Shown here one piece after another: positions 1 through 21,684 of a stretch of DNA of 64,000 bases. How positions within the stretch are numbered: position 1 is the stretch's first letter; the number at the start of each line of letters is the position of its first letter. The stretch comes from a virus, in IMG/VR virus record IMGVR_UViG_3300019752_000001; one strand, 5' to 3'. Below the pieces are notes generated by a model. It was not told the DNA's origin, ran no database searches, and saw only the letters and a program-made list of their open reading frames with translations. The position numbers and the translations under genes are program-made.

Positions 1-321
1 CTCTTTAAGCAGGTGACTCGTTGTGTTCTGACTCATGAACAATCTCTCAGCCCAGTCTCCCTCACGAGGATTGAAACCACTAACACTACCTTCACAGATA
101 AGCTTATGCAAAACGTTCAACTGCTCCACTAATGCATCATGCTGGTTAATGGCTAAGGCAATATTCTGTGCAGCTTGTTCTGTTTCCTCTTTTCCACAGT
201 AGTTACGGATGTTAACACCGAACCAAAGGTAATTAACCAACACTCCTTCACTGTCAGGTTTCAGGTTGTAAACTGTCGAATGTTCAGCTTTAACATCTGG
301 GTAGTTATTTTTGATAGTCAT
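1..321 (-). CDS. hypothetical protein, runs off window edge
   Basis: Manually read open frame MTIKNNYPDVKAEHSTVYNL... from ATG at 321 with upstream GAGG; no stop before position 1. Confidence 0.7.
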   Translation of the reverse strand, partial: MTIKNNYPDVKAEHSTVYNLKPDSEGVLVNYLWFGVNIRNYCGKEETEQAAQNIALAINQHDALVEQLNVLHKLICEGSVSGFNPREGDWAERLFMSQNTTSHLLKE

Positions 322-739
322 GTTTGTTCCTCTTCTTAAACCAGAACACAATAGGGGTTGTCTTGACAACAATCTGACCAAACCTCTCAGCAGTTCTGAA
401 GTTTACACTACTATTACGTCCACGCTCAACTTGCTTCTCAAGCTCCTTCCTAAATTCCTCCACAGAAAAACACACTCTTGGATAAGTTGCAAGGAGCACA
501 TGACGAAACCATATTATCCAGTGTATCTATAAATCTTCATGCTGCATATCTCCTGTAAATCTCACCTCTGTCTAGTGAATATTCTTCCGTTCATGCACAG
601 GAACTATCTCAGACTTCCTATGTATAGGATGAAAGTGGTCAACATGCCAGCCCTTTTAAGGAAGCTGACAACCACAATACCAGCAGATTCCGTTAGACTT
701 ATTCCATACCAGCTGCCTAGTTTTCTTAGATATTGCCAT
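305..739 (-). pseudogene. HNH endonuclease, disrupted (2 in-frame stops, 2 frameshifts) or sequencing errors
   Basis: Manual read MAISKKTRQLVWNKSNGICWYCGCQLP*KGWHVDHFHP...H*...[fs]DNMVSSCAPCNLSK[fs]SVEEFRKELEKQ; CxxC, HVDH and CxxCN motifs. Confidence 0.8.
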
Positions 740-742
740 TAG

Positions 743-1148
743 TTAGTTTCCTCTGATCCCTGTACTGCTGATACAACATAGGCTTTCTGGACAAGGAAGA
801 TACATAACATCTACCCCCCAAACCTGTTGAGCGTGACGAGTCATAGCTTGCTCATATTCGAAGTCTTTTGTGTCACGTAATCCTCTTACTACAACCTCCA
901 CGTTTTCAGACTTCAAGTAATCACCGAGATCAGAATCTTTTCTGTAGGTAACTTGGGTGTTATGTAAATGTGACACCTCCTCCCAAAAGTAATCTGCCCT
1001 ATCCTCTCCAGAGGTATCGTAAACCTTATCAGGGTTATCCGCAACAACCACTAACAGTTCAAAACCCAACCAGTTACACATCTCTACTACCCCAGAGGTG
1101 CCCTTCGTGTACAGGGTTAAAACTCCTTATAAATGCAACCTTTTTCAT
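743..1148 (-). CDS. coaD: phosphopantetheine adenylyltransferase (CoaD/PPAT)-like; one extra base in the C4 run at 1090-1093
   Basis: N-term MKKVAFIRSFNPVHEGHLW (HxGH) joins track ORF 743..1081 after a 1-nt correction; VVVRGLRDTKDFEYE and ISST are CoaD signatures. Confidence 0.85.
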
Positions 1149-1663
1149 AGTAGATCTCCTCTATGCTCCACAAACCACTCCGTACATTTCTGCTTGAACT
1201 CCTGAGAAGAGGAAGTATCATTAATCAAGACCCAATCAGCGACCTCTTCCCTTTGCTCCCTAGCTAATTGTGTATTGTGGATTCTCTGAGTCAGTGACAC
1301 ATTTCTGTGTGTATCCCGAAGTATAGCTGCTTCCTGGTTAGCTTTACGCTCAACCGTTAGAATCTTATAAGAAGGCTTTATATCAAAACCCTCTAAGTTA
1401 GGGATGACACAAACTTCTGGAGTGTTAGAGGTTAAGTACATATCAAAGTGTTGCATCAACCACCTTTCGTATTCCTTCCAGTTAGGATGAATGAAGGCTA
1501 CAGGACTACTGCCAAACCAACCTTTAAAAGTGTAGTGATGTAAAGCTGTTCCTTTCATTTCTTCGTGGAACCAGTCATCAACATCTAAGCATTTGTACCC
1601 CAACTCTTCAGCAGCTTGCAATAGTGTACTTTTACCACAAGCTATACCTCCAGTTACAATCAA
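1145..1663 (-). CDS. coaE: dephospho-CoA kinase (CoaE)-like
   Basis: N-terminal P-loop IVTGGIACGKST, DVDD, C-term ADWVLIND; stop overlaps the CoaD start (ATGA). Confidence 0.8.
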   Translation of the reverse strand: MIVTGGIACGKSTLLQAAEELGYKCLDVDDWFHEEMKGTALHHYTFKGWFGSSPVAFIHPNWKEYERWLMQHFDMYLTSNTPEVCVIPNLEGFDIKPSYKILTVERKANQEAAILRDTHRNVSLTQRIHNTQLAREQREEVADWVLINDTSSSQEFKQKCTEWFVEHRGDLL

Positions 1664-1823
1664 TATGTTAAGGTCTACTTTGTCAATAACCTAAGTTCGT
1701 TCTGTACATCTCCACTAATTATATTAACTCGACCTACTAATTATAGGTAGCTAAACAATGATTATTTGTACTCAGCCTTAGCTGGTGATTTCTGCGATGT
1801 GTTTTTCTTAACTCTTGGAACCT

Positions 1824-1851
1824 ATTATAAACACATAGATACACATTGCAA
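1824..1851 (-). promoter_or_regulatory. sigma70-like promoter upstream of coaE-coaD
   Basis: TTGCAA-N16-TATAAT. Confidence 0.65.
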
Positions 1852-1906
1852 CAACTATTTTTAACTTTATCATTCAACGAACTACCGGCGATTACACCAA
1901 GGCATT

Positions 1907-1938
1907 AAAAAAGCCAGCTACTCTTTAGTAGTGGCTTT
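1907..1938 (-). terminator. rho-independent terminator
   Basis: AAAGCCA-GCTACT/AGTAG-TGGCTTT hairpin with U-tract on the minus strand. Confidence 0.6.
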
Positions 1939-1963
1939 CTAGTAATAGGTTTATCTTCCAATA

Positions 1964-2278
1964 TCAACGTTTAATTACTCGGCCAATAAACAAATAAAGC
2001 TGCCGTGAAAACGCATAATGTGCATTGAAGTTAAATGAAAAGCAATCTTTTTCTACGCTAAATTCAAGTGCATATCGTGGCTTTGGTTGTGACACGTATA
2101 TCCGGCCAACTTTTTTAGGGTTGTCAATCCTAACTTCTTCCTGGGTTACAGTATACCCTTCACCTTCAAGAAATGCAATAAATGTTTTCTTGTTTATCGG
2201 CGCTCTGCCTGTCTTGACGCTGTGCTGACTATCTTTCCAATCCTTCAGGGTGTCCCACGTTAATTTAGCCATAACCAC
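1964..2278 (-). CDS. hypothetical protein
   Basis: ORF track; AAGGAG RBS. Confidence 0.7.
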   Translation of the reverse strand: MVMAKLTWDTLKDWKDSQHSVKTGRAPINKKTFIAFLEGEGYTVTQEEVRIDNPKKVGRIYVSQPKPRYALEFSVEKDCFSFNFNAHYAFSRQLYLFIGRVIKR

Positions 2279-2322
2279 GCTCCTTATTTAAGTTACACAA
2301 TTTTACCAGAAAACCTTGGCTG

Positions 2323-2661
2323 TTACCAGCCATTATTGCCCAGGTATGTCTTAACTTCATTCATGTTATTGAACCACTTCTCACCACCGCAGTAGTTGTA
2401 AGACATGTTAGTGCTACCGTCTTTCTTCCATACTGTTACTGTAGCGCTTTTGTTATCATTATCAGTCCAGACATTATATTCGGTGAATAGCTCGTTGTCA
2501 CGCTTTACTTCGGTGTGGATAGTAACCTCTACAACATCATCGCCCTGCATTTCTAACCACTCAGAAGCGCTTACAGTAGCAACGTTACCGAATTCATCTG
2601 TTACTGTGTTGCCGCGTACTGTGAATGTCTTACCGGTGAATCGATCTTTGTAAGTGGTCAT
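2323..2661 (-). CDS. hypothetical protein
   Basis: ORF track; GGGAG RBS; upstream promoter. Confidence 0.75.
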   Translation of the reverse strand: MTTYKDRFTGKTFTVRGNTVTDEFGNVATVSASEWLEMQGDDVVEVTIHTEVKRDNELFTEYNVWTDNDNKSATVTVWKKDGSTNMSYNYCGGEKWFNNMNEVKTYLGNNGW

Positions 2662-2687
2662 GGTGTGTCTCCCTAAGTGATGTAACC

Positions 2688-2715
2688 ATTATAGCGATTA
2701 TGGATATGATTGCAA
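2688..2715 (-). promoter_or_regulatory. sigma70-like promoter
   Basis: TTGCAA-N16-TATAAT, same form as 1824-1851. Confidence 0.65.
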
Positions 2716-2824
2716 TAGCTTATCCATCATTTAATTATCATTCCATCCTAACGACATGTAGCATATCCCTTTGGTTTACAGAACAGTATAAGTTTTTCAC
2801 TTCAAACATTTTTAGTTCTCCTTG

Positions 2825-3013
2825 TCAGGCAAAATTATCCCTACAAATAAAGGTATTCTCTACCTTCAACTCGTAGTTTTCTCTTACATCCCCGTCCCAC
2901 ACTTCTATATGGAAATGATAAATATTCTTTATCGAGTGTGTGAATACAACATTCACTTGTGTTGCATTAGGAAACTGAACCTCAACCATCTTCTTAACCG
3001 CTAAATTCTTCAT
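2825..3013 (-). CDS. hypothetical protein
   Basis: ORF track; fits strand and packing. Confidence 0.6.
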   Translation of the reverse strand: MKNLAVKKMVEVQFPNATQVNVVFTHSIKNIYHFHIEVWDGDVRENYELKVENTFICRDNFA

Positions 3014-3017
3014 TACT

Positions 3018-3212
3018 CTACCTCTCCCTTTTAGATTCTAAGATATCAATCTCATCGCGGTGCACCCAGATACCATTGCGCATTTTTTTCTGCATATCAA
3101 CGGTCTTCTGAACATCGGCACGAAGCTGCTCCACAACATCTTGAGCAGTCTCTTTTTTGATCTTCAAATTATGAAATTTAACCACGAGAGCCTCCGTCAT
3201 CAATATTTTCAT
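3018..3212 (-). CDS. hypothetical protein
   Basis: ORF track. Confidence 0.5.
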   Translation of the reverse strand: MKILMTEALVVKFHNLKIKKETAQDVVEQLRADVQKTVDMQKKMRNGIWVHRDEIDILESKRER

Positions 3213-3319
3213 TATGCTCTAGAGGTTCATTAGCTGCAATGGCACTAGAGAACTCCTCCTGCTTGTAGGTTAGTATATATTCGCCATCACCTTTCTTACG
3301 AATCCCGTACTGTTTATTA

Positions 3320-3817
3320 TTATGCATCGGCCTTCTCCATCTCAATCAAAACATTAATAATGTAATCCTGTAAATAAACACAACCAAGGTGCGCTTCTGG
3401 ATTGATTGCAATCTTGTTAATGTGTACTTGTTCATCTTTAAGGTATTCTTTGTCGGTTATGTTTGCGCAATACAACTTTTTAGGGTGCAATTTGCCATCA
3501 ATTGTGAAGGTGCTGTAGATATAAGAATCATCATCTTTACAGAGTTCTGCATAAGTGCTTCGGTAATAATGAATCTCAACTTTTACCTTCTTGCTGACAG
3601 ATGGTGGGGTATTGTTACGATACCAACTCTTTTTACCACCCTCGACTGGAGAAGTGTAAACCATCCCCATCCGGGTTTCAAACCACTTACCGTCACACCA
3701 GTAGTAAGTGTCACTTTCAAATTCCTCGATAGTGTTGTTGTGAAACTCTTCCACAAAACCATCAAAAGAAATTACACAAAAATCACCAGATACTGTTAGA
3801 TCGTTAATGCTTGTCAT
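3320..3817 (-). CDS. hypothetical protein
   Basis: ORF track; promoter upstream. Confidence 0.7.
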   Translation of the reverse strand: MTSINDLTVSGDFCVISFDGFVEEFHNNTIEEFESDTYYWCDGKWFETRMGMVYTSPVEGGKKSWYRNNTPPSVSKKVKVEIHYYRSTYAELCKDDDSYIYSTFTIDGKLHPKKLYCANITDKEYLKDEQVHINKIAINPEAHLGCVYLQDYIINVLIEMEKADA

Positions 3818-3856
3818 TGTAAGTTACCTGTTCAGTTGTTTGTTTGATGTGATTAC

Positions 3857-3885
3857 AGTTTAGTTGTTCAGAAAGCCCTTGTCAA
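3857..3885 (-). promoter_or_regulatory. sigma70-like promoter
   Basis: TTGACA-N17-TAAACT. Confidence 0.6.
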
Positions 3886-5166
3886 CACTAAATTATCATG
3901 TGTACCCAACACCTCCCACCAAGCTTCTCTGAATGTGTCAACAAGCAACTGCTCATCTTCCTGCTTAACTACAGCTGAATCATGATACGGAAGGAGAGGT
4001 TTGTCAAGGGCTGTGAAGGTGTTTATTACATTCATGAGGATGGAGGAATCTAAGTATTGTAGTTGTTGCCAAAGGAGAGAGGATGAACCAGGATATAAAG
4101 AGTTGCTTAGTAACACTTCAGAGATGCGATGATTAGTTTTTAACAAAGAGTTTACTACATCAGTTGGACACAACACATCATAATTTACTGTGGGGTAGTC
4201 TCTATCATCCACTGACTGCTTTATTTGGTTCAGTGTAAACCACCCGCATGACCTTTCAGCTTTCTTAAGGTTTTCACAATAGAGGAGCGACATAAAGAAC
4301 TTCTTACACAACCCTCTGATATCCTCGTACCCTCCCTGTACAAGCCCTTGTTCAACCTTATAAGGTTCAAAGTGTTCCGGTAAGTTTATTCCTAAATGGC
4401 AGGCTATCAGGTTTGGGTGAAGACACTTAATATCCACCTCAACAGTTCTCTGTCCATCAATAGTGATAGTTGGTCTTAGCTTAGAAGGGAGAGATTGAAA
4501 CCCTCCACAACTATAAACTCTTCCTGCTAGCGTTATCTTCTCTGAGAATATACGTCTGTAACAAGGACTGCAAGAGTAGTCCCCCACTTTGACTGTATGA
4601 CCACTTAACATATTGTTATAATCTTTCATATCCTGCTTAAGCTGACCAATACCTTTAGGCTTGACACCTGTAACCTGCTTACCTTTCAAGTCGCGTATAA
4701 CCACTTCCTCTTCATTCCCTCTACTGGCCCCTTCAGAGCTAACAGGAAGCTCTGAGAAGAGATTTATAAGAGGTTGTAGAGGTTTTATAGAGGACTTGCA
4801 ATAGTCCTCCTCGTGCAGGTAATAGCCTTTGTAGAGGGTTATTAATCCCAACTCTTCAAGTAATGGTAAGAGTTCAAGCATCTTCTTGTATGAAAGTTTC
4901 TGTTTGTACTTTTTGTTTGCTTCTGAGTATCTTACAGGTTTCAGAGAGATATTAAAGAAATCTCCTCCGTATCTCAAGGTTTTAGATATAGCTGTAACTA
5001 GGCACCAAACTTCATTATCGTACTTAGAACCTACATTAAGTAATTTTGTAACTTCTTTGTGTACATACAAGAAATAAGTACTTCTCTTTATCTGTAGATT
5101 GAATGGTTCAGAAGTAGCTCTAATCTTTATCTGTTGTTCTTTCTCCAGGGTCAGGAGTTCTATCAT
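3868..5166 (-). CDS. compact family-A DNA pol / T7-type RNAP palm-domain protein
   Basis: AGRVY pre-motif, motif A VEVDIKCLHP, motif B-like RGLCKK...LLY, motif C PYHDSAVV; no exonuclease domain seen. Confidence 0.65.
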   Translation of the reverse strand: MIELLTLEKEQQIKIRATSEPFNLQIKRSTYFLYVHKEVTKLLNVGSKYDNEVWCLVTAISKTLRYGGDFFNISLKPVRYSEANKKYKQKLSYKKMLELLPLLEELGLITLYKGYYLHEEDYCKSSIKPLQPLINLFSELPVSSEGASRGNEEEVVIRDLKGKQVTGVKPKGIGQLKQDMKDYNNMLSGHTVKVGDYSCSPCYRRIFSEKITLAGRVYSCGGFQSLPSKLRPTITIDGQRTVEVDIKCLHPNLIACHLGINLPEHFEPYKVEQGLVQGGYEDIRGLCKKFFMSLLYCENLKKAERSCGWFTLNQIKQSVDDRDYPTVNYDVLCPTDVVNSLLKTNHRISEVLLSNSLYPGSSSLLWQQLQYLDSSILMNVINTFTALDKPLLPYHDSAVVKQEDEQLLVDTFREAWWEVLGTHDNLVLTRAF

Positions 5167-10001: not shown

Positions 10002-10415
10002 TCATTCTCCTAAGATAAGGTTGTTAAAGGCTGCAATTGTCCAATGTGGTTTCTTAATCCGTGCGTTAGCAAATTGTTTAGCTAACCAGAGACATAAGCA
10101 CTTACGAGAGTTTCCGTATTCTCCTGTCCACTTATTTTCAGTGTGTCGGAAGATCACATAAGCCGCATACCTGCCTTCTATGTTAGGGTCAGGTACAGGG
10201 TGTGATAGGCTTCCTGTATATTCAGGCCATAAGGGCATCAACTGCCATGTAAGATTTCTGAGGTAGTAAGGAAGACGTAGTCCTTCAAGATTACCACAGA
10301 TACCAGTATCCTTGTTAGGTGCATCAGTTGCTAAGCTGGTAAATATATCTGACATCTTCTCTCTCCACGCAAAGTATGAAGCATCCAGCGTCAGGTAGGA
10401 ATAGAAAGTGTTCAT
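10002..10415 (-). CDS. GIC/PVPxP/EYG paralog family, copy 2
   Basis: GIC...WPEYTG..HPVPDP...WTGEYGNSRKCLCLWL; start moved to MNTFY. Confidence 0.75.
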   Translation of the reverse strand: MNTFYSYLTLDASYFAWREKMSDIFTSLATDAPNKDTGICGNLEGLRLPYYLRNLTWQLMPLWPEYTGSLSHPVPDPNIEGRYAAYVIFRHTENKWTGEYGNSRKCLCLWLAKQFANARIKKPHWTIAAFNNLILGE

Positions 10416-11347
10416 TGTGCATTCTCCTTCTGCTTGCAACCAGAACTCTTCCGAGCTTTGTCAGGGTTGTTTTCCATCCACTGCTGCACAAAATGTAACT
10501 GACCGCAACCTCCACCAATATCATCCTGCCCAGCAGGGTCAAAAACTCTTACACCGTAACCGTAGTTAAGTAGTTTCTCAGAGAAAGAAGTAGCCATCTT
10601 CCAAGCTTCTGTGTCACGACCTTTTGTAATATCCTTCTCACAAATTACAGAGACAGTAGCCTGCCATGTTTCTGGCTTGAACACCTCAGATAACCGCTGA
10701 GCATCCTCCTCTGTATCATTTCCGATATGTGTGCAATAGTTGAAGAAAGGAGACCGACCCGTTGCTGCATAAAACTCTTCACCCTTTTGGGCAATACCTT
10801 GTAAGTCTAGCTTAGCCTTGAATGGAATAAGTTTACTACGTTCCTCATCCAAGCTCTCATGTACACTGAATTGTAACCCAATGTTAGGGATACGAGAAGC
10901 TTGCTCAAACAACCACTGATAATCAACATCAGGTCCAGAAGTACTGACAAGGAGGGCTGCAGCAGGGTAACGAGAAGCCAACTCTTCCAAAACCTGTTCC
11001 ATGGTATTAGGTGTAAGCATTGGTTCGCCCATGGACATGAACATGATCTGGAGTTTATCAATTTTGTGAGGATCTTGTCCTGTCATAGACAAAGAATACT
11101 CAACCTGTTCTAACACCTCATTAACTGTAAGGTTACGTACAAAGTATTTCCCTGTTCCACAGAATGTGCAACCTACAGGACAACCACTCTGCACAGAACA
11201 ACAGATAACTGTACGTGTAAGGTAATCCGGGTAGGCGTATAGTACACTTTCAACAACAGCGTCATCTTTGGTGAATACAAACTTCTTAACTGATGTTTCT
11301 TCAGAGTTGAACTGTTCGATATTTGGCCAGTTTTTAGTAGAGGTCAT
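10412..11347 (-). CDS. RlmN/Cfr-family radical SAM RNA methyltransferase
   Basis: CCSVQSGCPVGCTFC (CxxxCxxC), MSMGEP, FSVH, DIGGGCGQL with the catalytic-position Cys. Confidence 0.88.
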   Translation of the reverse strand: MTSTKNWPNIEQFNSEETSVKKFVFTKDDAVVESVLYAYPDYLTRTVICCSVQSGCPVGCTFCGTGKYFVRNLTVNEVLEQVEYSLSMTGQDPHKIDKLQIMFMSMGEPMLTPNTMEQVLEELASRYPAAALLVSTSGPDVDYQWLFEQASRIPNIGLQFSVHESLDEERSKLIPFKAKLDLQGIAQKGEEFYAATGRSPFFNYCTHIGNDTEEDAQRLSEVFKPETWQATVSVICEKDITKGRDTEAWKMATSFSEKLLNYGYGVRVFDPAGQDDIGGGCGQLHFVQQWMENNPDKARKSSGCKQKENAQ

Positions 11348-14440: not shown

Positions 14441-14788
14441 TCATTTCACTGCCTCATACACAAAGATAGTTTTCTCTACTTCCTGTACTTGGAAGCAATC
14501 CCCTTCAGACCAATCTGTACCCTCCCAACTACTGTAGAAAGCCGTGTGCATCCAGTACTCTTCACAGCCTAACTTTTTATCTTTAATTAGAAGTACAACG
14601 TGGTAGTTCTCTCCTTCCCCTTCCCCACCTTCCTGCTCCGCACTGCATATAGTGTACTTTCCATCCTCTGTTTCGTAGGAAGAGGTACACTCTAGTTCTG
14701 AAAACATACTACCAAGTTCTTCCTCAAAACCTGCGGAGATAGCAACATCGTTAATATCAATAACACTGTCAGTGTTTTTAGTAGTCAT
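14441..14788 (-). CDS. hypothetical acidic protein
   Basis: ORF track; EQEGGEGEG...YSSWEG. Confidence 0.7.
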   Translation of the reverse strand: MTTKNTDSVIDINDVAISAGFEEELGSMFSELECTSSYETEDGKYTICSAEQEGGEGEGENYHVVLLIKDKKLGCEEYWMHTAFYSSWEGTDWSEGDCFQVQEVEKTIFVYEAVK

Positions 14789-15558
14789 AGTAATTCCTTT
14801 ATCTTAGTTATGAAATGTTTATCTAAATCTTTTCTCTTCTTCATTACAGTTACAGCGTTCTCTATTACATAAGTGTTCCACCACCCTTTTGACAAAGAAG
14901 TTATTAACAAGTCTAAAGCCTTACTCTTAGCTACTGACAGCGGTAATTGTTTTTGTTTGTCCACAAACACCCATCGTTCAGCAGCTATAACATACAACTC
15001 TTCAAACACTGTTAGAAGTTTTTCCTCTTGAGACAAACCGCAGAACAACACCTCACTACAAATAGGTTTATCTTTATCCTGTCTGATAAGATTGTGTACA
15101 GGTTCTTCTCTAAAAGCTAGAAGTTTGTGCAGCTCGTCATGATCAAACCTCCTAGTAATTACATCTTTAAAGAAAGTTTGATTATTCTTATCAGAGAACG
15201 ATGCGCACTTTTTCCCAAACTTCCTTTCCCACAGAGACGTTAATATACTGTGAAGGTGTTTATCCAACCTAGCTCCGCACCTTTTCATAATATCAATATC
15301 TTTTAGGTGTTGTATCCATTTCCCATTCTTACCTTTCCAAGGGCAATGAGAAACCTTAATTGTATAAAGATAGTCCAGGTCTACGTACAGAGGGTGGTTA
15401 TTATTATCTACGACATATTGAAATGCCTCATCCCAATGTACATCTACACCAAGTTGCTTTTCTGTTGTACTTGACAGGACATCTAAATCAGAAGGAACAC
15501 GACCTAGCGTACCTCTTCCAACCCAATAATCAAGAGCTGTTGATCCAAAGATTAACAT
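14785..15558 (-). CDS. putative nucleotidyltransferase-fold protein
   Basis: N-term hGS...DLD motif (IFGSTAL...PSDLDV). Confidence 0.6.
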   Translation of the reverse strand: MLIFGSTALDYWVGRGTLGRVPSDLDVLSSTTEKQLGVDVHWDEAFQYVVDNNNHPLYVDLDYLYTIKVSHCPWKGKNGKWIQHLKDIDIMKRCGARLDKHLHSILTSLWERKFGKKCASFSDKNNQTFFKDVITRRFDHDELHKLLAFREEPVHNLIRQDKDKPICSEVLFCGLSQEEKLLTVFEELYVIAAERWVFVDKQKQLPLSVAKSKALDLLITSLSKGWWNTYVIENAVTVMKKRKDLDKHFITKIKELL

Positions 15559-15586
15559 AAGCTTTTTTAATTTCCTACTTTACCTT

Positions 15587-16582
15587 TTATAGGGTTCCTA
15601 CTCCAGTTGCTGCCTGCTCCATACGCTGCTTCTCAGCCTTATCAAGAACAGCTTTCTCAGCCCAATATTCAGGGTTATTGACCTTCTTACTAGGCTTCTT
15701 AGGGCCTTGTGGAGGCGTCTGTACAGCAGGCTTCTTAAGTCCACCTGCAATAGTAAGTTTATAACTGTCATCGAAAGGAACACTAACAACTTCACCATTA
15801 ACCTTATACAGGATAATCCCAGCAAGATGTTTTACAGGAACATTTACAACATTTGTACTGTTTACTGAGAATGTGTCTGTATTAGTGGTTGGTGATTGCA
15901 CATACTCAACATAGCGATTATCAACCTGATCATCACCTCCACCTTCTACGCTTCCCTGAACACCGTTCCAAGTAGTGATCTGAGTAGCTGTGAAGGTTGA
16001 AGCTTCCTCCCCTTTATCATCGCCCTCCTCAGCCTTGTAGATGAATGTTACTTTGTGTACCAGAGTTGCTGGGCAATGAACGAGAGGCTTCATCAAGGAT
16101 TCCTTCTTATTTTTGGTAGAGGTGTTATTCCTACCTTTCATCGAACTCTTACCCCGGAGTGTCCCTTGTTCAGCTTCATTCTTAGCCAGGAGGAAGGCAA
16201 CTGGGTGTATTGTTAGAAGATGCTTAACATTTACATAATGCCAATCATTTCCCTCAGAATTTAAAACAGCGATCTCATTATCCCTGTCAACCCCACGATC
16301 ACTGGTACTCCGAATGCTACCTTCTACGAAAATACTAGGGTGTTCCTCTTCTCCAACCAAGAACTTATTAAATGTCTTAGCGTCAGAAGCAAACACATAA
16401 ACCTTATCACCTCGCTCCCAACCTAACTGTTTGTTATAGTGCTTTCCTTCCACCAATTGCTCAGTGAATGAGAATCCAATCTGACCTGCTGCAGCCTTAC
16501 GTTCCTCCTTAGAGTAATTATCAAGGATTGACAAATCTTCTACGTAGTTCTCTGCGAAGTTTTTCTCATTAAATGTGGTCAT
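15587..16582 (-). CDS. hypothetical protein
   Basis: ORF track; start moved to MTTFNE after AGGAG. Confidence 0.75.
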   Translation of the reverse strand: MTTFNEKNFAENYVEDLSILDNYSKEERKAAAGQIGFSFTEQLVEGKHYNKQLGWERGDKVYVFASDAKTFNKFLVGEEEHPSIFVEGSIRSTSDRGVDRDNEIAVLNSEGNDWHYVNVKHLLTIHPVAFLLAKNEAEQGTLRGKSSMKGRNNTSTKNKKESLMKPLVHCPATLVHKVTFIYKAEEGDDKGEEASTFTATQITTWNGVQGSVEGGGDDQVDNRYVEYVQSPTTNTDTFSVNSTNVVNVPVKHLAGIILYKVNGEVVSVPFDDSYKLTIAGGLKKPAVQTPPQGPKKPSKKVNNPEYWAEKAVLDKAEKQRMEQAATGVGTL

Positions 16583-18764: not shown

Positions 18765-20477
18765 CTACATAACACCAAGCTTACTACGGATCTCAGATAG
18801 AGTGTATTGGTTGTAGAGTTCACCATCCTCAAACACAACCTTCAGCTCCCCTTGAGCTTCCTGTTCAACAGTTTGGTTATCATATGTCACATACATCTCC
18901 TGTCCATCTTCTCCCTTCTCAAGCTCAACACGTAACAATCCTTCACGAGAAGCCTTAGACATATCGGTCTTAGGAGTTTTGTTCATACCAAAACCTTCAC
19001 CACCTACTACGGAGTAACCTCCCTTCAACGCAATACCATAAGAATCTCGTGAGGAGTTTTTCAGCTTAGCCCAACTACCAACACCAAGCAATAGGTTTGT
19101 TACACAGAATCCTAATTCTTCCATACGGCTATAGATAGCTTCTTGCATCTCCATTGTAATAGCTTCTCCGTAGATCAGTCCAACAGAAGGATGCAACACT
19201 TTATAACCTTTCTCGTTAACCACCCCTCCAAACACTTCCCAGAGTATTTGTAAACTACCCTTCACTTCTTCTTCTGAGATTTCCTTGTAACTGAGGTTTC
19301 CATCAACTTCATAATATTTACCTGAAGTTTTGCACCGGAACACCTGATAACCTCGTTGTATTAATGATGGGGTGATGAGGTTGTTAAGACCCCGTCCTTG
19401 TAGGTAAGGTCTGAAGTTAGGAATATCTTTATACCGTTCACCACAAATAACTTCTAGTGGGGTTTTAGGGCTGCTATCAGGACGGAACACAAGCTTACCA
19501 GGCAAACCTAAAGAGTCTGGCTCACGGGACACAATTACAGGTTCAAGCTTAGCAGCTAGCTCTGAGATAACGTAATAGTAATCTTTACTATCTGCTACAT
19601 AACTCAGAATGCCACGTGGGTAAACATCTGTCAGGAGACGCTTAAGACTCTCTTCTTCACTTCCGTAATAATGGATACCTTGTGTGGTTGTTGCGTGTTC
19701 AGTTGCATTAACAGAGACGCCAACCCATTCCTTATCACTATCTGCACCATAATATTGTTCAAGTCCATCAATAGCCCATAAAGTGTCTGTTCCAACACCA
19801 AACATAAGGTGTGCTACTCCAGACATCATAGCATCCTGATCACCACGCAGACCACGAGCTGAGAAGTCATGGTTAGCAATAGGCAACCAAGCAGCAGCTG
19901 CTTCTGGAGTAGCAGTCTTCTCAGCCCAGCGCTTACTTGTCAGGAAATACTGTTGAGCTACGGATGCAGAGTTACACATTGACCACACCATACAACTCAG
20001 GAATGTCTCACAATTGTTTGTCAACCAGAAGAAGCGATCATCTGTATTAACTACTGTGAAGAATGGTGTGTTCTTATTAACCAAACTACCTTCAGGGAGG
20101 GACTTAATACGCAGAGGAAGATAACCTAGATCATGTAGGTCAGCCATAGCAGCAATCTGTACATCTCCGTTGTCAGGGCCTACACAGTTTTTAACCCGAC
20201 GACGATAGGCATTGATAACTTTTTCTTTAGGCTGACTGAAGAATGTAGCATTCCAGTTATCCTTCAACATGTGTACAGCCAACTGAACACCCACCATCAC
20301 CATCTTATCGGTGTTGTTCTGAGGGATTGTGTGAGCCAGTCTGAAGTTACGAGCTGTACAGCTGCTGTACACTACCTCTGTTCCAGGGACATACTGTTCA
20401 ATATGACCTAGTTTATAAGCATCTGTCTTGTGAGCTTGAGAGATGGCGAAAATTGAATTGTTCATTGTGTTAATCAT
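18765..20477 (-). CDS. nadV: Nampt/NadV-family protein (Namat of NARP1)
   Basis: TDAYKLGH, HDFSARG, ATEH, VADS, RPDS, GLIYG. Confidence 0.9.
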   Translation of the reverse strand: MINTMNNSIFAISQAHKTDAYKLGHIEQYVPGTEVVYSSCTARNFRLAHTIPQNNTDKMVMVGVQLAVHMLKDNWNATFFSQPKEKVINAYRRRVKNCVGPDNGDVQIAAMADLHDLGYLPLRIKSLPEGSLVNKNTPFFTVVNTDDRFFWLTNNCETFLSCMVWSMCNSASVAQQYFLTSKRWAEKTATPEAAAAWLPIANHDFSARGLRGDQDAMMSGVAHLMFGVGTDTLWAIDGLEQYYGADSDKEWVGVSVNATEHATTTQGIHYYGSEEESLKRLLTDVYPRGILSYVADSKDYYYVISELAAKLEPVIVSREPDSLGLPGKLVFRPDSSPKTPLEVICGERYKDIPNFRPYLQGRGLNNLITPSLIQRGYQVFRCKTSGKYYEVDGNLSYKEISEEEVKGSLQILWEVFGGVVNEKGYKVLHPSVGLIYGEAITMEMQEAIYSRMEELGFCVTNLLLGVGSWAKLKNSSRDSYGIALKGGYSVVGGEGFGMNKTPKTDMSKASREGLLRVELEKGEDGQEMYVTYDNQTVEQEAQGELKVVFEDGELYNQYTLSEIRSKLGVM

Positions 20478-20815
20478 ACTTTGTTCTCCTGTTTTACGAA
20501 AATAGCGTGGAAATAATTACAGAAATCATAAGCTTCTGAGTTTACTACACCGGAAGAGGAACTGCTTAGTGTATACCCTTGAGCTAATAGTTCATTACAC
20601 TCCTTTTCAAACTCTGCTGGTGTTAATACGTCTACAACTTTTACAGAAGGTGTAGTTATGTCTTCCTGAACCTTCTCCTCAAAAACTGTTCCATCCTTAA
20701 CCCACTCCCAAGTTATATATCGGGGATTAACAGCTCCACAGTCACAAACCCAACCATTACGCCCTTCCATTACAGAACTCTTGCAGACATCACAAGAAAT
20801 AACTGAATGCCCCAT
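20474..20815 (-). CDS. zinc-ribbon hypothetical protein
   Basis: CDVC...CDC; lies between the Prs-like and Nampt-like genes. Confidence 0.65.
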   Translation of the reverse strand: MGHSVISCDVCKSSVMEGRNGWVCDCGAVNPRYITWEWVKDGTVFEEKVQEDITTPSVKVVDVLTPAEFEKECNELLAQGYTLSSSSSGVVNSEAYDFCNYFHAIFVKQENKV

Positions 20816-20826
20816 AACTTTCTCCT

Positions 20827-21684
20827 TTAATATGTGTAGTTTAATTTCATCAGTTTGATACGTTCATCTTTGCAGTAACCAAACAAACTATCTGTTGTCC
20901 AGATGTCATCAACTCCTCCCTCAAAGATGTGATCAACTCCGTTAGGGAATATACCATGTACAACACAAAGTACAACCTTTGCAGCTCCCTTTTCCTTAAG
21001 CTTCTTTGCCAGAGCTATAAAGGTTCCTCCGTTATCACAGATGTCATCAAAGATATAACATGTTCGTCCCACCACTTCATCATCTTTACAATACACTTCT
21101 GTAGATGTGATTGCACCAGATACTACATCTCGCACTTTAGCTGCTTGTACTACACGGGATATACTGAGCTTCTTACAAACTTTCAAACTCTTCTTGCTAG
21201 CACCTGCGTCAGGGATAACCACAACGTCCTGATCAGAAATGATGTTATGGAAAGGTCTAAACACTTCTTCTTGCTTAACTTCAATGCAGCGAGCTAAGCA
21301 GGCTGTTGCCACATCTGAGTGGCTATCCACCACCATAACCAAGTCAAACTGCATAGCGTTGATTGCTTCACAGAATACCTTAATAGATAATGCTTCTCCA
21401 TTGTCCATAACACGATCCTGTCGAGCATATGGAATGTAGGGCATACGAAGCTTCATATGAGAGGGACGACACATACGAACTACAGCATCCTTCAGCATCA
21501 TAAGGATAATTAAATCCTCTGGCTTAGACATCTTAGCTTCAATCGTACAAGCCTGTCCACAGAAGACAGTAAAAGGAGGAAGAAGTTTTACATTAACCTC
21601 TCCTCCACTAAAGACTGAATAGGTGAACGGGATAGTTTGTGTCCCATATTGAATATCGAATCGTTCATTAACTCTTGTCATCAT
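20827..21684 (-). CDS. prs: PRPP synthetase-like protein (Adps of NARP1)
   Basis: FSGGE, PYIPYARQDR, DSHS, PDAGA, DDICDNGGT, HGIF. Confidence 0.9.
   Translation of the reverse strand: MMTRVNERFDIQYGTQTIPFTYSVFSGGEVNVKLLPPFTVFCGQACTIEAKMSKPEDLIILMMLKDAVVRMCRPSHMKLRMPYIPYARQDRVMDNGEALSIKVFCEAINAMQFDLVMVVDSHSDVATACLARCIEVKQEEVFRPFHNIISDQDVVVIPDAGASKKSLKVCKKLSISRVVQAAKVRDVVSGAITSTEVYCKDDEVVGRTCYIFDDICDNGGTFIALAKKLKEKGAAKVVLCVVHGIFPNGVDHIFEGGVDDIWTTDSLFGYCKDERIKLMKLNYTY

Follow-up and report, generated by a model that had tools for sequence, protein, structure and literature searches.

In a 64,000-nucleotide stretch of viral DNA (IMG/VR virus record IMGVR_UViG_3300019752_000001; the whole stretch is hereafter called the window), we found an overlapping pair of coaE-like and coaD-like genes that is probably the recent decay product of a phage cassette for finishing coenzyme A (CoA), and that is likely unable to make CoA in this phage. 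CoaD converts 4'-phosphopantetheine to dephospho-CoA, and CoaE converts dephospho-CoA to CoA. The contigs in JGI, ENA, and Logan that carry proteins of this pair are 139.5-139.8 kb long, and the phage is an uncultured myovirus with a genome of ~140 kb. An earlier reading of the DNA (the original prediction) had proposed that the pair has its own promoter and rebuilds CoA after a CoA-destroying defense. Its gene identification is supported, its observation was partly confirmed, and its interpretation is partly supported. Coordinates of the features discussed below are collected in Table 1.

Assignment of the kinase and the adenylyltransferase

The two genes are translationally coupled through an ATGA overlap, as had been predicted. 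The CoaE-like protein, which starts with IVTGGIACGKS, passed the Pfam CoaE model (PF01121; 38.8 bits, cut-off 27), and this model also matched 12 of the 13 members of the clade described below. The Walker A P-loop GGIACGKS lies at residues 5-12, with G5, G10, and K11 invariant across the family alignment. A profile built from the 13 family members spans dephospho-CoA kinases in the Protein Data Bank (PDB) end to end, matching 13 such sequences (best 1jjv, E 6.6e-14, profile positions 4-176). The AlphaFold2 (AF2) model of the protein has a predicted local distance difference test (pLDDT) score of 92.5, and its Foldseek matches in the PDB down to rank 29 are all dephospho-CoA kinases or the mouse bifunctional CoA synthase (E 1e-8 to 2e-5; template modeling [TM] score 0.57-0.75). 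Sequence profile and predicted fold thus support placing the kinase in the dephospho-CoA kinase family, in agreement with the original prediction.

For the coaD-like gene, omitting a single G from the run at 1090-1093 joins its two frames into a 134-amino-acid (aa) read-through protein (P0001) that resembles phosphopantetheine adenylyltransferase (PPAT). The TIGR01510 (coaD) model gave 63.9 bits on the 112-aa fragment alone and 87.8 bits on the joined protein (residues 8-132); the latter score is below the equivalog cut-off of 103.3, and intact coaD relatives score 72-83 bits. P0001 also matched Pfam CTP_transf_like (PF01467) at 31.9 bits, above the cut-off of 21, and all 34 of its PDB sequence matches are PPATs, aligned over residues 3-132. 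The HEGH at residues 14-17 of both the frame-A fragment and P0001 agrees with the (T/H)xGH motif, and the PPAT-specific VRGLRDTKDFEYEQ block (RGLR...D[FY]xYE) and CISST are present and align with the PDB PPATs. The 5' fragment, which encodes MKKVAFIRSFNPVHEGHLW before a TAA after 24 codons, is a weak HIGH-nucleotidyltransferase match by itself.

Frameshift and other damage in the window copy

The coaD gene of the window lacks a single uninterrupted reading frame. At 1090-1093, it carries GGGG where the close metagenomic relative L002 has GGG, and the additional base shifts the frame by +1. With GGG, L002 reads through this site as GHLWVVEMCNW, the helix expected after the HxGH motif. A JGI contig from another sample (L001) is 100% identical to window positions 46-4417 (4372 bases), GGGG included, and the split open reading frame (ORF) is recorded on four contigs from three sources (JGI, ENA, and Logan). 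Because the independent contig L001 is identical and L002 is in frame with GGG, the sequences identify the run as an inserted base that a real phage population carries, rather than as a conserved site of recoding. The original prediction had named a true frameshift in advance as counting against it, and a true frameshift is what we found.

Additional changes in the window copy point in the same direction. In the G-[ST]-F-D-P loop of PPAT, the Gly that is kept in L002 and five other lineages is Arg in the window (IRSFNP, Gly8 to Arg). Relative to L002, the start codon of coaE has changed from ATG to ATA and its Shine-Dalgarno sequence from AAGGAG to AAGTAG (both within 1664-1712), which leaves the ORF with a TTG start. 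In the window copy, the D-A-D motif also has Val in place of Ala, and 3 aa have been deleted. Comparison with L002 and five more distant relatives shows that the Gly8 to Arg change, the lost start Met, the D-A-D change, and this deletion all arose in the window lineage. Of the HD-like gene overlapping coaE in L002, the window keeps no more than a 50-base remnant up to position 1712, and the HNH endonuclease gene directly downstream of coaD is a pseudogene, its counterpart in L002 (6829-7116, 95 aa) being intact.

Between the window and L002, the ratio of non-synonymous to synonymous substitution rates (dN/dS) was 0.16 for coaD (13.5 synonymous and 9.5 non-synonymous differences) and 0.41 for coaE, and the differences in coaD are mostly synonymous on both sides of the break. 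From these values, we infer that the genes were constrained for most of the time since the two lineages split and that the damage came late, which suggests that the coaD break is recent. The transferase would not be made whole without recoding, and the CoA pathway is therefore most likely off in this phage.

Several observations weigh against reading the pair as a decayed, inactive cassette. The stop codon of the 24-aa ORF (1077-1079) adjoins the ATG of the 112-aa ORF (1079-1081), such that both fragments could be made. The coaE ORF remains open, and translation from TTG is possible even where no Shine-Dalgarno site precedes it. Both proteins fall under their NCBIfam equivalog cut-offs (87.8 versus 103.3 bits for the CoaD-like protein; 34.9 versus 65.55 bits for the CoaE-like protein with TIGR00152), which makes their substrate specificity putative. 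The dN/dS values are based on few substitutions. Furthermore, coaD of L002 has a one-base insertion of its own (T, aligned at window position 977), which weakens L002 as an intact reference. This insertion is probably an assembly error because L002 has a coverage of 3.85x and a second conserved ORF of this contig is also broken by one base. In that second case, a one-base insertion near L002 1480-2556 (aligned at window 5033) cuts the copy of a 432-aa window ORF (3868-5166) to 358 aa, suggesting that the low-coverage L002 contig contains indel errors.

The break might itself be an assembly or sequencing artefact that hides a working coaE-coaD auxiliary metabolic module. It is a single base in a homopolymer, its removal yields a full-length PPAT-like protein, and the dN/dS of 0.16 was obtained over the whole coaD frame, codons on both sides of the break included. 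We consider this explanation unlikely, given that the run is only four bases long, that the same GGGG occurs in the independent JGI assembly and the split ORF on contigs from three sources, and that the remaining changes specific to the window (Gly8 to Arg, the missing ATG and Shine-Dalgarno sequence, and the dead HNH gene) are in keeping with real decay.

The cassette in other lineages

Among 1.84 billion representative proteins searched with HMMER, only 11 kinase clusters were found at E <1e-10. The kinase family alignment keeps the P-loop, D-x-D-x-W, A-F-x-H-x-x-W, the E-R...R-D...R lid, and the Q...R...N motifs. We counted as lineages those recovered from metagenomes with a family-level CoaE match of >200 bits, and seven distinct ones were obtained: the window with L001, L002, L003, L004 (= L005 = L008), L006, L009, and L010. 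In all seven, a PPAT-like gene (135-145 aa) lies directly downstream of coaE, and it is intact in the five lineages other than the window and L002. At least three of the seven are clearly phage, and the neighbor genes in L004 and L009 are phage genes. On their sequences, both enzymes form a small, divergent, and compact clade.

Ordinary bacterial-type CoaE matches from the same scan had no CoaD-like neighbor. Neither megablast of window positions 500-2100 nor tblastn of the CoaE-like protein gave a match in 50,697 phage records, and an IMG/VR scan with the single CoaE-like protein as query returned nothing. The sole locus from the IMG/VR alignment query (L007) was rejected, as only its P-loop matched and it has no CoaD-like neighbor. 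Separately, we observed that L004, a 167-kb phage-like contig with an intact cassette, encodes GGDEF/EAL and HDOD proteins (cyclic-di-GMP signaling genes) at 14447-16555.

Four of the seven lineages have an HD-like gene directly upstream of coaE that overlaps its start. Some sources label members of this family as "predicted metal-dependent HD superfamily phosphohydrolase," and the protein matches phrog_19425; against Pfam, NCBIfam, and PDB sequences, no match was found. Its AF2 model (pLDDT 97) is closest to the catalytic domains of class I cyclic-nucleotide phosphodiesterases (Z ~13, 168 residues, root-mean-square deviation 3.2), with generic HD hydrolases also near in the fold search. No entry for the ACP phosphodiesterase AcpH was among the Foldseek or VIA matches, which does not rule out a link to that enzyme.

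In the intact relatives, the CoaD-like enzyme would turn 4'-phosphopantetheine into dephospho-CoA and the CoaE-like enzyme would then turn this into CoA, so that CoA may be topped up independently of the host enzymes. We infer these substrates and the physiological role. The source of the 4'-phosphopantetheine could be either the host pool or its release by the HD enzyme, which may supply or tidy up a substrate. In the window copy, these steps would be interrupted by the split in coaD and the Gly to Arg change, together with the loss of the coaE ATG, its ribosome-binding site, and the HD gene, beside a dead HNH gene.

NARP1-type genes and possible counter-defense

As stated in the original prediction, the phage carries a NAD+ reconstitution pathway 1 (NARP1)-type pair (18765-21684, minus strand), which consists of a Prs-like gene (20827-21684, 285 aa) and a nicotinamide phosphoribosyltransferase (NAMPT)-like gene (18765-20477, 570 aa) that are separated by a 113-aa ORF. 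Closest to the NAMPT-like protein, at ~50% identity, are proteins of Vibrio phage 1.187.O and Pseudoalteromonas phages J2-1 and H101.

The proposal that the coaE-coaD pair is an active counter-defense, rebuilding CoA from 4'-phosphopantetheine after cleavage by an immune effector in parallel to NARP1, draws on several facts. The two enzymes catalyze the exact steps from 4'-phosphopantetheine to CoA, and the genome also has the NARP1-type pair at a distance of 17 kb. In being accessory, patchy, and mosaic, the cassette resembles anti-defense genes, and the copy in relatives is headed by an enzyme with a phosphodiesterase fold. For this phage, we nevertheless judge the proposal quite improbable. 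Its coaD is frameshifted and has the Gly to Arg change. A full-text literature search found no CoA-depleting anti-phage defense, although the absence of a paper does not exclude such a system. NARP1 homologues were absent from the fetched 6-8 kb flanks of the cassette relatives, and tblastn of the NAMPT-like, Prs-like, PIF1, and neighboring proteins of the window against all fetched loci gave no relevant matches. Moreover, the cassette decays beside intact NARP1-type genes, which argues against tight co-selection of the two in this phage. The counter-defense reading is thus unsupported here and, for this genome, undercut by the true frameshift.

For the relatives in which HD-CoaE-CoaD is intact, it is doubtful, though conceivable by analogy, that the three genes form a NARP-like pathway that reconstitutes or redirects CoA against an undescribed CoA-targeting defense. 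In that case, the HD enzyme would act on a molecule of the host or on a product of immune cleavage to liberate 4'-phosphopantetheine, which CoaD and CoaE would use for rebuilding CoA.

Another part of the original prediction was that coaA and coaBC are missing from the window. We found no pantothenate kinase or CoaBC family member among the 30 window ORFs scanned, which include all ORFs of at least 200 aa (20 ORFs were compared with Pfam, and 10 structural or replication genes with PHROGs only). The claim holds for the ORFs scanned, and only part of it was thereby covered, with the window itself representing less than half of the ~140-kb genome.

Possible other substrates and possible bypass of the frameshift

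The two enzymes might act on other substrates and have no relation to CoA, for example as an NMN/NaMN (nicotinamide or nicotinic acid mononucleotide) adenylyltransferase for NAD+ salvage together with a nucleotide or small-molecule kinase. Their scores under the equivalog cut-offs would allow this, as would their short lengths: the transferase is without ~25 C-terminal residues and the substrate domain of the kinase is shortened. A PPAT-annotated gene of Myxococcus phage Mx1 also lies beside an NAMPT gene. Such functions are quite unlikely for three reasons. NMN adenylyltransferase (NMNAT) models match only in the N-terminal HxGH region at ≤15 bits, whereas the PPAT model covers the whole length, including RGLR...D[FY]xYE; both sequence and fold place dephospho-CoA kinases ahead of shikimate and adenylate kinases; and two consecutive steps of one pathway are strictly adjacent in all seven lineages. 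On these scores (≤15 versus 87.8 bits for TIGR01510), we rejected an NMNAT identity for the transferase, and the PPAT-like assignment of the original prediction was upheld.

With regard to the Mx1 gene itself (L033, OR576727.2 129142-129651), we noted that its other neighbor encodes a cytidylyltransferase. The gene may be a mis-named NAD-salvage adenylyltransferase.

It is highly improbable that the frameshift is bypassed, either by programmed +1 frameshifting at CUC-UGG-GGU or by reassembly of the 24-aa and 112-aa pieces into an active enzyme: the adjoining stop and start codons would permit termination-reinitiation and the differences from L002 are mostly synonymous in both frames, but UGG-G gives no good re-pairing in the +1 frame, no stimulatory element was seen, the break interrupts the first helix that follows the catalytic HxGH motif, and L002 is in frame at the site and five other lineages are uninterrupted there, so no recoding signal is conserved. 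Programmed ribosomal frameshifting was rejected on the ground that neither the shift site nor the two-frame arrangement is conserved in these six lineages.

Upstream elements and genome context

The original prediction that the pair has its own promoter stood in part. The best sigma-70-like site within 300-2400 lies upstream of coaE, and a terminator-like hairpin lies farther upstream. On the other side, promoter-like sites in the region occur at chance level (5 found versus 4.8 expected), and the candidate lies within DNA that is not common to L002; upstream of position 1712 the two sequences differ, and in L002 the HD-like gene overlaps coaE instead. From its sequence, the hairpin is likely the intrinsic terminator of the upstream gene at 1964-2278 and would separate the coaE-coaD unit from it. 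A simple terminator scan missed this hairpin because its stem has a bulge.

Table 1. Features of the coaE-coaD region, with positions in the window unless a contig is named
Feature	Position	Strand	Details
HNH endonuclease pseudogene directly downstream of coaD	450-739	-	two in-frame stops and a 2-nt indel
coaD 3' fragment, frame B (+1)	743-1081	-	112 aa; RGLR...DFEYE and ISST motifs
coaD 5' fragment, frame A	1077-1148	-	24 codons with HEGH nucleotidyltransferase motif; TAA at 1077-1079
GGGG run	1090-1093	-	one-base insertion versus GGG in L002, +1 frame shift; from alignments and indel list
CoaE-like (dephospho-CoA kinase family) ORF	1145-1663	-	172 aa; TTG start; no recognizable Shine-Dalgarno site
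ATGA overlap of coaE stop (1147-1145) and coaD ATG (1148-1146)	1145-1148	-	read from sequence; same overlap in L002
3' remnant of the HD-like gene that overlaps coaE in L002	1664-1712	-	L002 alignment; L002 homology stops at 1712
Sigma-70-like promoter candidate TTGCAA-16-TATAAT	1851-1824	-	10/12 matches; best site within 300-2400
Hairpin and U-run	about 1903-1940	-	fold -17.7 kcal/mol, z -2.9, then UUUUUU
HD-like genes of relatives	L002 5360-5899; L003 2137-2646; L006 3-404; L010 2-154		

The coaE-coaD-HNH block (window 317-1712 versus L002 5847-7251) has 92.5% identity and its flanks are ~86% identical; window 1712-3308 and L002 4291-5847 were also compared. The DNA directly upstream of coaE is unrelated between the two phages, a mosaic pattern for which the neighboring HNH gene may be responsible through homing or gene conversion.

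The window has a GC content of 40.6% and densely packed short ORFs. Its genes encode a tail sheath, a tape measure protein, baseplate proteins, a family-A DNA polymerase, and a primase-helicase, and the structural proteins are ~30-36% identical to those of rV5-like and other large myoviruses. In addition, a 311-aa ORF (10412-11347, minus strand) has a weak radical SAM match of 28.8 bits, just below the cut-off of 29.5.

Implications and comparison with known systems

With the window, a compact and divergent clade of the two enzymes in phages is defined; their genes are strictly syntenic and often accompanied by a gene for an enzyme of HD/phosphodiesterase fold. The cassette is dispensable, as a phage found in several samples has a freshly broken copy and keeps its NARP1-type genes intact. 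The window is thus useful negative evidence for proposals of a CoA-based arms race, and the intact relatives L004, L006, and L003 are better subjects for bench work than this phage.

The transferase has the HxGH (HEGH), NPxK, RGLR...DFEYE, and ISST motifs in common with bacterial CoaD (TIGR01510; Thermotoga maritima 1vlh, Thermus thermophilus 1od6, and Escherichia coli 1b6t). Compared with the ~160 aa of bacterial CoaD, members of the phage clade have about 134-140 aa and are throughout without the last C-terminal helix (~25 residues). The window gene differs further in its frameshift, in the Arg that replaces the Gly of GSF[DN]P, and in its score under the equivalog cut-off. The kinase shares with bacterial CoaE (PF01121/TIGR00152; Haemophilus influenzae 1jjv, E. 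coli 1vhl/1t3h, and Legionella pneumophila 4ttp) the P-loop GGIACGKS, the D-x-D after strand 2, an HP-like motif, the RD...R lid, and the C-terminal Q...R...AD-V-x-N motifs. With 172 aa, it is shorter than bacterial CoaE (~200 aa), and its helical substrate-binding region between D-x-D and H-x-x-W is shorter as well.

Like NARP1 and NARP2 (bioRxiv 10.1101/2024.02.11.579819), the cassette comprises a pair of phage enzymes that could together restore an essential cofactor from one of its breakdown products. NARP enzymes use the products of a known immune reaction, whereas no CoA-cleaving defense is known, and the chemistry of the CoA enzymes here is that of standard biosynthesis and has not been repurposed.

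A study of snow viromes reported that viral coaD and coaE are abundant there as auxiliary metabolic genes and stated their role to be unknown (PMC11097641). As in those viromes, the last two steps of CoA synthesis occur together on phage DNA in the window. Unlike them, the genes described here belong to a compact and divergent clade. The window copy is broken and without the HD gene. Phage coaD and coaE being already known as auxiliary metabolic genes, the compact clade and its broken member are the addition made here.

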